From the IMG/VR virus record IMGVR_UViG_649989998_000001: a stretch of 8,585 bases of DNA. The stretch is one strand, 5' to 3'. Of this stretch, positions 2,789 to 3,864 are shown piece after piece. Every line of letters starts with the position of its first letter. Position 1 is the first letter of the stretch. Source of the stretch: a virus. Taxonomy: Duplodnaviria; Heunggongvirae; Uroviricota; Caudoviricetes. Both the position numbers and the translations under genes were made by a program. The notes under the pieces are model-generated. The model saw only the letters and a list, made by a program, of their open reading frames with translations. It made no database searches and was not told where the DNA came from.

Positions 2789-2862
2789 TGGAGCGACAGC
2801 GGGAATCGAACCCGCATCATCAGCTTGGAAGGCTGAGGTAATAGCCATTATACGATGCCCGC
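2789..2862 (-). tRNA. tRNA-Gly(UCC)-like, with a defective 3' acceptor strand (possible pseudogene)
   Basis: Reverse complement reads GCGGGCAUCGUAUAAUGGCUAUUACCUCAGCCUUCCAAGCUGAUGAUGCGGGUUCGAUUCCCGCUGUCGCUCCA, with anticodon loop CUUCCAA. D, anticodon and T arms are intact. The 3' acceptor strand is UGUCGC (6 nt) where pairing with 5' GCGGGCA requires UGCCCGC, so the stem has a G-G and a C-U mismatch and is one nucleotide short. Confidence 0.6.
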
Positions 2863-2865
2863 ATA

Positions 2866-2941
2866 TGGTGCCGACTACCGGAATCGAACTGGTGACCTAC
2901 TGATTACAAGTCAGTTGCTCTGCCTGCTGAGCTAAGTCGGC
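2866..2941 (-). tRNA. tRNA-Thr(UGU)
   Basis: Reverse complement GCCGACUUAGCUCAGCAGGCAGAGCAACUGACUUGUAAUCAGUAGGUCACCAGUUCGAUUCCGGUAGUCGGCACCA; 7-bp acceptor stem GCCGACU/AGUCGGC, anticodon stem ACUGA/UCAGU with loop CUUGUAA, T-loop UUCGAUU, encoded CCA. One A-C mismatch in the T-stem. Confidence 0.8.
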
Positions 2942-2943
2942 GC

Positions 2944-3020
2944 TGGCCCACCACCGAGGACTCGAACCTCGCACCGTCAACTTAGAAGGTTGATGCTCTA
3001 TCCGGATGAGCTAGTGGTGG
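2944..3020 (-). tRNA. tRNA-Arg(UCU), reads the rare AGA codon
   Basis: Reverse complement CCACCACUAGCUCAUCCGGAUAGAGCAUCAACCUUCUAAGUUGACGGUGCGAGGUUCGAGUCCUCGGUGGUGGGCCA; acceptor stem CCACCAC/GUGGUGG, anticodon stem UCAAC/GUUGA with loop CUUCUAA, T-loop UUCGAGU, encoded CCA. The 5' C start is unusual for chromosomal E. coli tRNAs. Confidence 0.8.
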
Positions 3021-3021
3021 T

Positions 3022-3098
3022 TGGTGGCCCTTGCTGGACTTGAACCAGCGACCTGGCGATTATGAGTCGCTCGCTCTGACCAACTGAGCTAAAGGGCC
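3022..3098 (-). tRNA. tRNA-Ile2 (anticodon CAU, lysidine-type, reads AUA); by anticodon alone it could be tRNA-Met
   Basis: Reverse complement GGCCCUUUAGCUCAGUUGGUCAGAGCGAGCGACUCAUAAUCGCCAGGUCGCUGGUUCAAGUCCAGCAAGGGCCACCA; acceptor stem GGCCCUU/AAGGGCC, anticodon loop CUCAUAA. The anticodon and T arms resemble ileX/ileY-type tRNA-Ile2 rather than elongator tRNA-Met, as recalled. Confidence 0.75.
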
Positions 3099-3107
3099 GG
3101 AGGAAGA

Positions 3108-3136
3108 ATAATAACCATATGTCATCACATCTGCAA
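3108..3136 (-). promoter_or_regulatory. Candidate sigma70 promoter directly upstream of the tRNA cluster
   Basis: On the minus strand, TTGCAG (3136-3131), 17-nt spacer, TATTAT (3113-3108), then ~9 nt to the tRNA-Ile2 5' end. The -35 is poor (3 of 6), so this is tentative. Confidence 0.25.
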
Positions 3137-3186
3137 ACTCATCTGACCACCAGCACGTTTAACGTCCTGTGCCATTTTTCAGGCAT

Positions 3187-3208
3187 AAAAAAAACCGCTC
3201 AATGGCGG
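3187..3208 (-). terminator. Candidate intrinsic terminator downstream of the ORF6N gene
   Basis: On the minus strand, CCGC-CAUUGA-GCGG hairpin (3208-3195) followed by U8 (3194-3187). The stem is short (4 bp, extendable with A-U pairs). Confidence 0.3.
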
Positions 3209-3306
3209 GTTCTGGTAAAGTTCATGCGCTTGATTCGCCTCGCGATACAGCTTTGCTAAGCGTACCGGAATTGAAGCAGTTTATGTGCAAAAATGCAAGA
3301 CCTTTT

Positions 3307-3864
3307 TTAAAGCTGCATCAGCCTTTCCACCAGTTTATCTCTGCGAACAACAAACCAACCATTGGCTCTCGCCAGTTCCAGCCATGACTCAAGGGAAATA
3401 ACAATATCATCATCCCGTAACTGAATTGTGGAAACAGTGACACCGCCTCGCTGATAACAGAGAACTCGCGTGTCGTAACTTTTCTGGCATGAAACTGGCG
3501 CTGACGGATCCTTTTGTCTGAAATAGCAGTCTTCCAGTTTTTCGAACACATCCCACGCCTGATCGGTTTCCAGCATTTTGGCATGACGGGCTGCTCCGCG
3601 TTCTGTCCAGAGGATGAGGGAGCGGGCTTTGGGAGAGATGGGATTTTGTGAGTAGTTTAAAGCTACCCGCAATTCTTTAAGGTCATTACCAACAACTTTG
3701 AAAAAGTGTTTCCCTTCAACGAAGCGTACTTTGTTCTCATGATGATTCTGGCGAATACGCACCGGCTCAGTGCCGTAAAGCTGCGCCAAAAGTTCGGTGG
3801 TAATAACAGGAATCTGGTTATGGGTGATCGGGGAGAGAGTTTCAACAGAGATTTGAGTGGTCAT
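3307..3864 (-). CDS. Phage ORF6N-domain protein (antirepressor-like DNA-binding protein), 185 aa
   Basis: ATG at 3864-3862 with GGAG Shine-Dalgarno 8 nt upstream. Product MTTQISVETLSPITHNQIPVITTELLAQLYGTEPVRIRQNHHENKVRFVEGKHFFKVVGNDLKELR...ISPKARSLILWTERGAARHAKMLETDQAWDVFEKLEDCYF... fits the ORF6N/KilA-N-like pattern (LYG, RF-EG-FF, ISPK-R, LWTE-GA, HAK). The ORF-track start at 3996 is rejected as read-through of the leader. Confidence 0.65.
   Translation of the reverse strand: MTTQISVETLSPITHNQIPVITTELLAQLYGTEPVRIRQNHHENKVRFVEGKHFFKVVGNDLKELRVALNYSQNPISPKARSLILWTERGAARHAKMLETDQAWDVFEKLEDCYFRQKDPSAPVSCQKSYDTRVLCYQRGGVTVSTIQLRDDDIVISLESWLELARANGWFVVRRDKLVERLMQL

Follow-up and report, generated by a model that had tools for sequence, protein, structure and literature searches.

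The open reading frame at 3307–3864 of the window (by which we mean the whole 8,585-nt stretch of DNA analysed) in all likelihood encodes an ORF6N-type antirepressor-like regulator of the AnrP family, carried as the payload of a self-contained, small-RNA-controlled cassette of the P1 immI kind. The window corresponds to Shigella dysenteriae ADUT01000025.1 (8585 bp), the same locus being present in Sd197 (CP000034.1), and all the features described below lie on its minus strand. Read on that strand, the cassette would run from a promoter through IsrK (with a1/b1 sites and a terminator) and C4 to a2/b2 sites over the Shine-Dalgarno, and then into the gene. A 2016 publication already covers the gene family, its place behind Q, its control by small RNAs and its part in prophage induction, and Rfam has curated families for the RNA elements. 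As a discovery the result is small, the observation being real and ordinary; as a correction, it means that the ORF6N gene should not be interpreted apart from the isrK and C4 RNAs upstream of it, and that the unit linked to Q is an IsrJ-like promoter-terminator 3' of the gene.

An AnrP-type protein with a rare C-terminal domain

The gene encodes 185 aa from an ATG at 3864–3862, exactly the sequence quoted in an earlier, sequence-only reading of positions 2789–3864, and has its own Shine-Dalgarno as that reading stated (GGAG, 3876–3873, 8 nt 5' of the ATG). Its product consists of two parts, an ORF6N domain (aa ~12–118; Pfam PF10543 at aa 12–97, E 2.6e-20) and a C-terminal domain (aa ~128–185). 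PHROG 2379 'anti-repressor' aligned with it over 1–185 of 187 (E 1.2e-93), and Gifsy-1 AnrP, which matches it in length and in its two-domain architecture, aligned end to end (residues 1–182, 54% identity); the gene, proposed earlier as the most plausible place in the window for an uncharacterised function, thus belongs to a known family. The middle of ORF6N and the C-terminal domain (identity ~35%) have diverged between the two proteins, which share the C-terminal motif G-W-[IFV]-V-x-[KR]-R-[DE]-x-L. Moreover, the ORF6N domain shares 79% identity with the ORF6N of a P1-type Ant, a similarity that ends at aa ~126; the window protein has neither the N-terminal extension of Ant nor its KilAC domain. 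The description of the gene as antirepressor-like is borne out by the AnrP architecture and by this likeness to Ant.

Two more specific identities were discarded. A P22-type Ant was ruled out, since the Pfam search of the 185-aa product found neither the N- nor the C-terminal P22AR domain; the same search gave no match to ANT/KilAC (PF03374). A LexA-controlled small antirepressor of the Gifsy GfoA/GftA type, characterised by an upstream LexA box and by a small protein adjoining a dinI homologue (PMC3121763), was rejected because there is no LexA box 5' of the gene and because size and domain differ. Searching the whole window for CTGT-N8-ACAG with one mismatch gave three matches, as many as expected by chance, and none between Q and the gene start.

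The earlier remark that the C-terminus carries no recognisable motif stands insofar as its last ~60 residues matched neither Pfam nor any solved fold; the suggestion of novelty does not, as the region is common to AnrP and PHROG 2379. NCBIfam and PDB sequence searches (the latter at E up to 1) returned zero matches. A single-sequence AlphaFold model had a mean pLDDT of 35.6, and an 18-sequence alignment raised residues ~128–185, the only confident part, to a pLDDT of ~80, with the ORF6N part still poor; the structure prediction suggested by the sequence-only reading thus yielded a confident domain and no fold match. The domain, with 13 clusters at 50% identity in a set of 1.84 billion representatives, is rare and occurs fused to ORF6N, fused to Rha and standalone, and in mosaic relatives of the window protein P22AR_C takes its place. 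By sequence comparison, then, the C-terminal ~60 residues are a rare domain with no assigned family, common to Gifsy-1 AnrP. This domain may serve specificity or partner binding; as a partner-recognition module not described before, it could choose which prophage repressors are neutralised, and would then set the specificity of cross-induction among co-resident prophages. The residual interest of the locus lies in this domain and in the molecular target of AnrP-type proteins, which bear on how induction is coordinated in polylysogens.

If it works like P1 Ant and the antirepressors of Gifsy phages, the window protein would neutralise a non-cleavable prophage repressor of the DicA/RacR/GfoR type, ORF6N being the module shared among such antirepressors. 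The Gifsy-type family of non-cleavable repressors includes DicA and RacR (PMC3121763), and intact relatives of the window prophage have immunity regions of the HTH/YdaS/YdaT type. Overexpression of Gifsy-1 AnrP, the only homologue for which activity has been shown, increased antQ-operon mRNA and induced Gifsy-1 (PMC4825925). To connect the window protein with prophage induction or cross-induction is a reasonable analogy because it shares the architecture of AnrP, which induces Gifsy-1, and because its ORF6N domain is so close to that of Ant. Alternatively, the protein might bind DNA directly through a KilA-N-like ORF6N domain and regulate the promoter of the Q operon with no repressor as partner. 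The authors who described AnrP proposed in 2016 that it may activate transcription (PMC4825925), and one UniRef family member is named 'KilA-N DNA-binding domain-containing protein', which favours direct DNA binding; against it, the same ORF6N is found fused to classical antirepressor C-termini (KilAC in P1-type Ant, P22AR_C in other prophages), and every related PHROG family carries the annotation anti-repressor, an agreement of annotations and not of experiments. On balance we consider direct regulation unlikely and retain repressor neutralisation as the working explanation.

A role in defence, anti-defence or superinfection exclusion, the first two of which had been suggested by the sequence-only reading, is very improbable. 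What could be cited for a moron of this sort are PADLOC matches to the candidate PDC-S05 models only (15–23 bits, best E 7.6e-6 at 23 bits), all confined to the ORF6N region. Such matches are at the level of a shared domain and no partner gene of a PADLOC defence system accompanied them; moreover, the gene sits in a regulatory cassette of antirepressor type and its homologue induces its own prophage.

Regulatory RNAs between Q and the gene

Between Q and the ORF6N gene, three Rfam families (isrK, c4-a1b1 and C4) exceeded their gathering cut-offs. The cassette promoter, P_isrK (4111–4140), has TTGACT and TATATT separated by an 18-nt spacer (10 of 12 consensus positions), and its -10 element ends 7 nt 5' of the Rfam isrK start at 4104. 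The IsrK small RNA, equivalent to the a1/b1 element of immI-type loci (4028–4117), comprises two hairpins and an intrinsic terminator (stem 4049–4032, directly followed by a T run), and was matched by isrK at 4104–4028 (75.6 bits, cut-off 50) and by c4-a1b1 at 4117–4065 (52.2 bits, cut-off 46.7). It carries the sites b1 (UUGGCGU, 4079–4073) and a1 (UACGGAG, 4062–4056). Next comes a C4-type antisense RNA (3916–4000; RF01695, full length, 77.6 bits, cut-off 45), the counterpart of the STnc1160/'orf45' region of Gifsy-1, whose minimum-free-energy fold has a long outer stem and two inner hairpins. This fold exposes segment a' (UUCCGUAC, 3958–3951) in a hairpin loop and segment b' (ACGCCAA, 3944–3938) in a single-stranded junction. 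In the leader of the ORF6N gene (target region 3873–3911, read from the sequence) lie b2 (UUGGCGU, 3911–3905) and a2 (GUACGGAG, 3880–3873), the latter containing the Shine-Dalgarno GGAG of the gene. The sequence-only reading overlooked the regulatory RNAs at 3916–4117, which lie outside the positions it covered.

Segment b' is complementary to both b1 and b2, which are identical, and a' to both a1 and a2. Since folding whole-RNA duplexes unfolds structured RNAs and is uninformative, we read the pairing by hand from the exposed loop and junction segments and tested it by co-variation. Across 84 loci the b'/b1/b2 and a'/a1/a2 sites co-varied: 78 of the 84 had an exact b' complement on both sides (b1 and b2) and five on the downstream side only; the b sites fell into five classes, and the a' loop had at least six variants, most of them with a complementary a2 of 6–10 bp. 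In 1990, Citron and Schuster reportedly described specificity classes that co-vary in the same manner between P1 and P7, to which the loci here may be likened. Four prophages of E. coli and Salmonella, intact or nearly so, and one phage record also had the isrK, c4-a1b1 and C4 trio.

The arrangement resembles the immI loci (c4, icd, ant) of P1 and P7, with a C4-type RNA whose two exposed segments are complementary to a1/b1 upstream and a2/b2 downstream, the downstream sites covering a ribosome-binding site in both cases; in immI this RNA is processed, and the P4 CI RNA with seqA/seqC is related to it. A 94-kb P1-like plasmid carries the corresponding series of isrK-like element, C4, icd and an Ant with ORF6N and KilAC/ANT domains, and it is the ORF6N part of this Ant that shares 79% identity with the window protein. 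The window differs from immI in that icd, which immI couples translationally to ant, is absent, its place being taken only by a non-conserved frame that overlaps C4 and is fused to the gene, in that the antirepressor-like gene's own Shine-Dalgarno is the target, and in that the cassette lies within a lambdoid prophage beside Q. The closest described system is antQ-isrK-orf45(STnc1160)-anrP-isrJ of Gifsy-1 (Hershko-Shalev et al. 2016, PMC4825925), in which the same gene order follows a DUF1133 Q, Rfam isrK and C4 match at equivalent positions, and IsrJ occupies the position of a short promoter-terminator unit in the window; the supplementary alignment of that study already contains E. coli and S. 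dysenteriae homologues. The window departs from Gifsy-1 by the fusion of the 'orf45' frame to the gene, by four tRNA genes after the promoter-terminator unit and by the truncation of its prophage.

In Gifsy-1, most transcripts stop at the IsrK terminator, so that IsrK accumulates, and the read-through transcripts carry anrP yet stay untranslated; excess IsrK supplied in trans acts on the C4 region and switches translation on ~140-fold, upon which AnrP boosts transcription of the Q-containing operon and the prophage is induced (PMC4825925). In the window, a' and b' of C4 would pair either with a1/b1 or with a2/b2, and this choice would determine whether the Shine-Dalgarno is free or blocked. 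In Salmonella, an ~80-nt processed RNA (STnc1160) from the 'orf45' region has been detected experimentally, and the published IsrK mutations G28A and G31A (PMC4825925) map to the b1 loop when numbered from the Rfam start. The published model requires translation of 'orf45' and translational coupling (PMC4825925). The 'orf45' frame of the window has no stop codon and is fused in frame with the ORF6N gene, a longer ORF from 3996 (229 aa) crossing the C4 region into it, and the details must therefore differ from that model. Furthermore, mutating b1 in cis raised basal translation (PMC4825925), an effect that a model in which IsrK is simply a decoy for C4 does not predict. A three-site RNA switch of the P1 type (a1/b1, C4, a2/b2) may be a better account of the published 'orf45 coupling'.

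Position after Q and the downstream unit

Upstream of the cassette lies a Q-like antiterminator of the DUF1133 family, the AntQ type of Gifsy-1 (4137–4691; Pfam DUF1133 E 2.2e-105, with a weak Phage_antitermQ match; 184 aa as called in the Sd197 copy), whose stop codon overlaps the -35 of P_isrK. The sequence-only reading held that this was not the usual place for such a gene, and that the gene was under late, Q-dependent control. The first point does not hold: the antQ-isrK-orf45-anrP-isrJ locus was described in 2016, and the same gene stands at this position in prophages of E. coli, O157:H7 and Salmonella that are intact; those of E. coli and Salmonella run from Q through the ORF6N gene and, in some, tRNA genes to the lysis genes. 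The synteny comparison therefore returned a common and already described position.

Late control would make the gene cargo of the late operon, with P_isrK as pR' and the IsrK terminator as tR', and with antitermination by Q switching the gene on, possibly in a positive feedback in which Q leads to AnrP, derepression and more Q. The overlap between the Q stop and the P_isrK -35 and the short terminated RNA next to it, comparable with lambda 6S RNA, fit such a scheme, and the ~8-fold rise of the long transcript when Gifsy-1 IsrK was supplied in trans could reflect AntQ feedback. Against it, the whole of P_isrK (-35 to -10), IsrK and C4 is conserved in the nin region of Stx2a phages, upstream of a different Q family, and the homologous RNA arrangement of the P1-like plasmid has no Q nearby. 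In the Stx2a phages the same promoter, IsrK/a1b1 and C4 precede ORF6N/Rha genes; the cassette lies upstream of Q, between Dam and NinG, and leads into genes for ORF6N+P22AR_C and Rha+KilAC, with ~89% nucleotide identity to the window over the N-terminal ORF6N part and different C-termini. These comparisons indicate that the cassette is autonomous and mobile: P1 has it in immI, Stx phages have it in the nin region, and phages of the Gifsy/Rac type have it after Q, so that a place behind Q is no proof of late-operon control.

A second unit lies between the ORF6N gene and the tRNA genes (unit 2, 3187–3298) and had gone unnoticed within the stretch covered by the sequence-only reading. It consists of a promoter at 3298–3270 (TTGCAT, 17-nt spacer, TTCAAT), read by eye and not flagged by the promoter scan, a conserved ~40-nt initial transcribed region and a variable intrinsic terminator (3211–3187). 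Relatives from E. coli, O157 and Salmonella keep unit 2 on the 3' side of the ORF6N gene, and in phage 683R6 it lies directly 3' of Q; the order P1-C4-P2 was found in 66 of 94 sequences scanned. The direct junction between Q and unit 2 occurred in 525 of 5426 E. coli genomes, and prophages that lack the cassette and whose Q is 88% identical to that of the window have unit 2 right after Q, so that it is unit 2 that keeps its link to Q. Control of the ORF6N gene by Q is doubtful because its own promoter travels with the cassette and because unit 2 directly follows Q in cassette-less prophages; the attribution is probably wrong for the gene, the tRNA genes for their part occupying the late slot. 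We accordingly regard the late-cargo scheme as improbable and prefer the self-contained cassette.

Judged by its conservation and position, unit 2 is probably the late promoter and terminator of this phage type. It is the equivalent of Gifsy-1 IsrJ (coordinates in PMC2330248) in position only, Rfam isrJ giving nothing at E ≤ 1 in the window and an insignificant match (14.7 bits, E 4.7) to unit 2 of a Salmonella relative. This IsrJ-like unit, and not IsrK, may be the Q-controlled late leader of Gifsy/Rac-type phages. A joint reading, with the C-terminal domain as partner-recognition module, a P1-type RNA switch and the IsrJ-like unit as late leader, is put forward tentatively, as a possibility short of even probability.

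A truncated prophage and its tRNA genes

The prophage is cut by two IS1 copies (1100–2594; InsA/InsB-like ORFs, Pfam IS1 families), the IS elements that had been noted after the tRNA genes. The phage/IS1 junction lies at 2594/2595, and the homologous stretch, 98.5% identical to its counterpart in an intact E. coli prophage, ends exactly at 2595, which is 195 bp past the last tRNA and 99 bp before the holin start of the intact relative. As stated earlier, the window contains no lysis or toxin genes; immunity, lysis and structural genes were absent from both the window and the Sd197 flanks. The prophage here is IS-truncated and, because the remnant in the window has no lysis, structural or immunity genes, the cassette can at most act in trans on other prophages, or is vestigial. 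Whether cassette and tRNAs are here a decaying, functionless remnant, a view compatible with the preferred explanation of the family's role, we rate as evenly balanced: the IS1 cut, the gene losses, an IS fragment that splits DUF1367 from YbcO and a damaged tRNA-Gly acceptor stem speak for decay, and against it, Q, promoter, IsrK, C4 and the 185-aa ORF (from start to stop) are intact and 97–98% identical to the copies in intact prophages.

The four tRNA genes of the earlier description were confirmed by ARAGORN and Rfam at 2790–3098, downstream of both promoter-terminator units. They are a CAU tRNA of Ile2 type (3022–3098), called 'Met' by ARAGORN and identical in sequence to the CAU tRNA annotated as tRNA-Ile in RefSeq E. 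coli, tRNA-Arg (UCU; 2944–3020), tRNA-Thr (UGU; 2866–2941) and tRNA-Gly (UCC; 2790–2859). The ileZ-argN-argO cluster of Stx phages likewise places tRNA-Ile2 (CAU) and tRNA-Arg (UCU) between Q and the lysis genes, and O157 relatives of the window prophage have Ile-Arg-Arg at the same site; a paper on the Stx pR' region (PMC6266700) makes no mention of repressor, ORF, tRNA or hypothetical. The window differs from that cluster in its set (Ile-Arg-Thr-Gly), in the damage to Gly and in the loss of the genes that the tRNAs would serve. In the acceptor 3' strand of tRNA-Gly, a 1-nt deletion and a C-to-T change distinguish the window (CTG-TCGCTCCA) from its intact relatives (CTGCCCGCTCCA), with an Rfam score of 49.7 against 64.9 bits, and this tRNA gene is probably decaying.

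Gene content, position and family of the ORF6N gene

The window corresponds to a complete contig (ADUT01000025.1, 8585 bp) of a Shigella dysenteriae assembly, and the same locus is present in S. dysenteriae Sd197 (CP000034.1, 548-558 kb). The ORF6N gene (185 aa, 3864-3307, GGAG 8 nt 5' of the ATG), its RNAs, a second unit made of a promoter-like element and a terminator (unit 2, 3298-3187) and four tRNA genes (3098-2790) are all on the minus strand, as are the gene for a Q-like antiterminator (DUF1133, 4691-4137; hereafter Q) and, 5' of it, genes for DUF1367 and YbcO-family proteins. 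The stretch 4988-2595 shares 98.5% identity with an intact E. coli prophage; this homology stops precisely at 2595, 99 bp short of the holin start in that relative, and an IS1 copy directly abuts the phage DNA at the 2594/2595 junction. Gene calls, Rfam matches and this breakpoint confirmed the arrangement described in the sequence-only reading, an ORF6N gene and four tRNAs followed by IS elements.

The annotation as "antirepressor-like" was correct: the protein had an end-to-end match to PHROG 2379 ("anti-repressor"; 1-185 of 187, E 1.2e-93), and its residues 1 to 182 aligned at 54% identity (E 6e-63) with Gifsy-1 AnrP, a 187-aa "anti-repressor-like" protein whose sequence is given in the supplementary alignment of Hershko-Shalev et al. 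2016 (PMC4825925). The alignment covers the C-terminal stretch (NGWFVVRRDKLVERL in the window, SGWIVIKRDLLAEKL in AnrP). This region, previously singled out as carrying no recognised motif, is indeed unassigned, but it is not new to the locus, since Gifsy-1 AnrP has it. An exhaustive HMMER search of 1.84 billion cluster representatives with residues 110-185 returned only 13 clusters at E <= 0.001; the domain follows either ORF6N or Phage_pRha, or is carried by short proteins (64-102 aa).

At E <= 0.001, a word-index search with the protein gave 4774 homologues. Of these, the 120 best were 185-237 aa long and at least 85% identical, came from E. coli, E. albertii, Shigella and Salmonella, and included several clusters each found on at least 1000 contigs. 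At the DNA level, at least 80% of the gene was present in 113 of 5426 complete E. coli genomes and some matching part of it in 918, many partial copies comprising only the N-terminal part with another C-terminus attached (P22AR_C or Ant/KilAC). Intact or near-intact prophages (in E. coli FDAARGOS_944, IGC_EcoliInv_1.1 and PEC148, an O157:H7 strain and Salmonella enterica) had the order DUF1367, DUF1364/YbcO, DUF1133 Q, ORF6N gene, lysis genes, with tRNAs between the last two in some and not in others. The place is thus not the unusual one that had been supposed for such a gene. Since intact prophages share the position, and the locus was described in 2016 with E. coli and S. dysenteriae homologues listed in the supplement (PMC4825925), the gene is a common, already-described moron, which the sequence-only reading had itself set against its proposal of an uncharacterised function; the feature is real, but already known and common. 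Over YbcO, Q, isrK, C4 and the ORF6N gene, PP818812.1 ("Actinobacillus phage vB_Apl-pPE4") is 91.5% identical to the window. Its other genes include hok/sok and further lambdoid genes of the E. coli type; the Actinobacillus host given for it looks doubtful.

An RNA layer upstream of the ORF6N gene

A sigma-70 promoter (TTGACT-18-TATATT, 4140-4111 (-)) overlaps the Q stop codon with its -35. Downstream of it are Rfam matches to isrK (4104-4028 (-), 75.6 bits, with an intrinsic terminator at its end), to c4-a1b1 (4117-4065 (-), 52.2 bits, overlapping the isrK match) and, over the full length, to the C4 antisense RNA (4000-3916 (-), 77.6 bits). These RNAs lie upstream of the segment originally flagged (2789-3864), which had missed them. 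C4 belongs to the immI region of phages P1 and P7, where this antisense RNA controls the antirepressor gene ant.

The minimum-free-energy fold of C4 has, as expected, a long outer stem and two inner hairpins, and exposes two segments, a' (UUCCGUAC) in a loop and b' (ACGCCAA) in a junction. Reading the sequence, we found complements of b' in the loop of the second IsrK hairpin (b1, UUGGCGU) and in the ORF6N-gene leader (b2, UUGGCGU, 3911-3905 (-)), and complements of a' 3' of b1 (a1, UACGGAG) and in the leader (a2, GUACGGAG, 3880-3873 (-)), where a2 includes the Shine-Dalgarno of the ORF6N gene. A six-locus alignment contained three b classes (UUGGCGU, UUAGCAC and UUGGAAC), with b1, b' and b2 co-varying per class. 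In a wider scan of 84 C4 sites, from sequences including 80 IMG/VR loci retrieved with the window protein, an exact b' complement was present on both sides in 78 sites and downstream only in five; there were five b classes and at least six a' loop variants, most with a complementary a2 of 6-10 bp. Judged by these sequence comparisons, the complementarity of b' and a' to the IsrK and leader sites is not chance. The published loss-of-function mutations IsrK G28A and G31A (PMC4825925) map to the b1 loop in our own numbering, counted from the Rfam isrK start.

In the window (4028-4117 (-)), at five related loci of prophages or phages and in an Stx2a phage (L094, 3511-3598), the isrK (RF01394) and c4-a1b1 (RF03163) models matched overlapping coordinates; the observation also covers 2098-2176 in locus L092. 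isrK has no clan in the Rfam output, and the two appear to be one and the same element.

A P1-like 94-kb plasmid carries, in order, an isrK-like element (60.2 bits), C4 (75.4 bits), an Icd-like gene and Ant, a 371-aa protein with ORF6N and KilAC domains whose ORF6N part shares 79% identity with the window protein (residues 18-126). This shared layout and the RNA complementarity therefore argue for an immI-type module, and we consider it highly probable that the window holds an AnrP-family gene within an immI-type, RNA-controlled cassette. Unlike P1-type immI, the cassette has no icd gene, and KilAC is replaced by a small, different C-terminal domain.

The corresponding Gifsy-1 locus, antQ-isrK-orf45-anrP-isrJ, in which AntQ is a Q-like protein, was studied by Hershko-Shalev et al. 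2016 (PMC4825925). IsrK is a 77-nt RNA with a constitutive promoter; transcripts reading through its terminator carry anrP yet stay untranslated, IsrK in trans raises anrP translation ~140-fold, and AnrP expression leads to more antQ-operon mRNA and to Gifsy-1 induction. The authors likened the arrangement to the phage P4 CI RNA and its seqA/seqC sites. In orf45, from which an ~80-nt RNA, STnc1160, is processed, the nucleotide sequence is conserved and the amino-acid sequence is not, the frame being 27, 31 or 45 aa long, or fused, depending on the phage (published alignment, PMC4825925). In the window this frame lacks a stop codon and continues into the ORF6N gene as one 229-aa ORF (3307-3996 (-)), with its ATG inside the 5' stem of C4. 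Such variability is more in keeping with an RNA element than with a conserved protein. The published model relies on translation of orf45 and on coupling (PMC4825925), against which stands the stopless frame in the window; the cis effect published for a b1 mutation (PMC4825925) is not accounted for by a simple decoy model.

It is plausible, though unproven, that the ORF6N protein would work by binding a prophage repressor. Intact relatives have HTH/YdaS/YdaT-type immunity regions, and DicA and RacR belong to a family of non-cleavable repressors needing antirepressors (Gifsy work, PMC3121763); both agree with an antirepressor. A protein regulating directly by binding DNA is a fair rival to this reading.

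Promoters, late control and a probable cassette insertion next to Q

The ORF6N gene and the tRNAs had been placed together under late, Q-dependent control. For the tRNAs, in the late slot, this holds; for the ORF6N gene it probably does not, as indicated by the Stx2a phages and by unit 2. In Stx2a phages the cassette is in the nin region, 5' of a Q of a different family from that of the window (NinB, HNH, Dam, [promoter, a1b1/isrK, C4, ORF6N genes, Rha+KilAC gene], NinG, Q, tRNA Ile-Arg-Arg), and its promoter is conserved between those phages and the window from -35 through -10. In the Stx2a phage LC616031.1 (L094, 3500-5860), a single isrK/C4 leader precedes three genes in succession, ORF6N (121 aa), ORF6N+P22AR_C (224 aa) and Rha+KilAC (242 aa), with an Rfam sRNA-Xcc1 match (75.7 bits) between the first two.

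Unit 2 consists of TTGCAT-17-TTCAAT, ~40 conserved transcribed nt and a terminator varying in sequence between phages. It lies between the ORF6N gene and the tRNAs, and relatives from E. coli, O157 and Salmonella keep it 3' of that gene. The order cassette promoter, C4, unit 2 was found in 66 of 94 sequences scanned. Phage vB_EcoS-683R6, whose Q is 88% identical to that of the window, is without the cassette and has unit 2 directly 3' of Q; the same direct junction is present in 525 of the 5426 E. coli genomes, and unit 2 is therefore the element that stays linked to Q. Its conservation and position suggest that unit 2 is likely a late promoter with its terminator, and that the ORF6N cassette is likely a moron inserted just 5' of it.

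By position, unit 2 corresponds to IsrJ of Gifsy-1, a 74-nt RNA that starts ~60 nt after anrP (an estimate from coordinates in PMC2330248); the Rfam isrJ model gave no significant match to unit 2 in the window or in a Salmonella relative. If the two are equivalent, the short, terminated RNA from the late promoter of these phages would be IsrJ.

Comparison of the Q 3' end (window 4137-4260 (-), L002 5640-5752) between prophages with and without the cassette showed that the first ~72 residues are identical and the last ~35 differ; on either side the cassette is bordered by similar A-rich/TTGA sequences. There seems to be a recombination junction within the 3' end of Q.

Decay of the remnant

The prophage is a remnant in a Shigella genome, so that the cassette is either vestigial or active only in trans. 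Compared with intact prophage copies, tRNA-Gly(UCC) (2790-2859 (-)) lacks 1 nt and has C changed to T in its acceptor 3' strand, its Rfam score being 49.7 bits vs 64.9 in an intact relative; the gene is likely decaying. A segment of ~228 bp (4989-5216), which separates the YbcO-family gene from the DUF1367 gene and is missing from the intact E. coli relative, codes for the N-terminal ~55 residues of an IS3-family OrfA, identical to the OrfA at 7187-7489. The segment is an IS fragment within the remnant. The surroundings (7821-8030 (-) and 1-1000) are rich in IS elements, with two IS1 copies and several IS3-family copies or fragments, and also hold a 69-aa glucose/sorbosone dehydrogenase-like fragment (Pfam GSDH on the called gene), a picture typical of S. 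dysenteriae genome decay.
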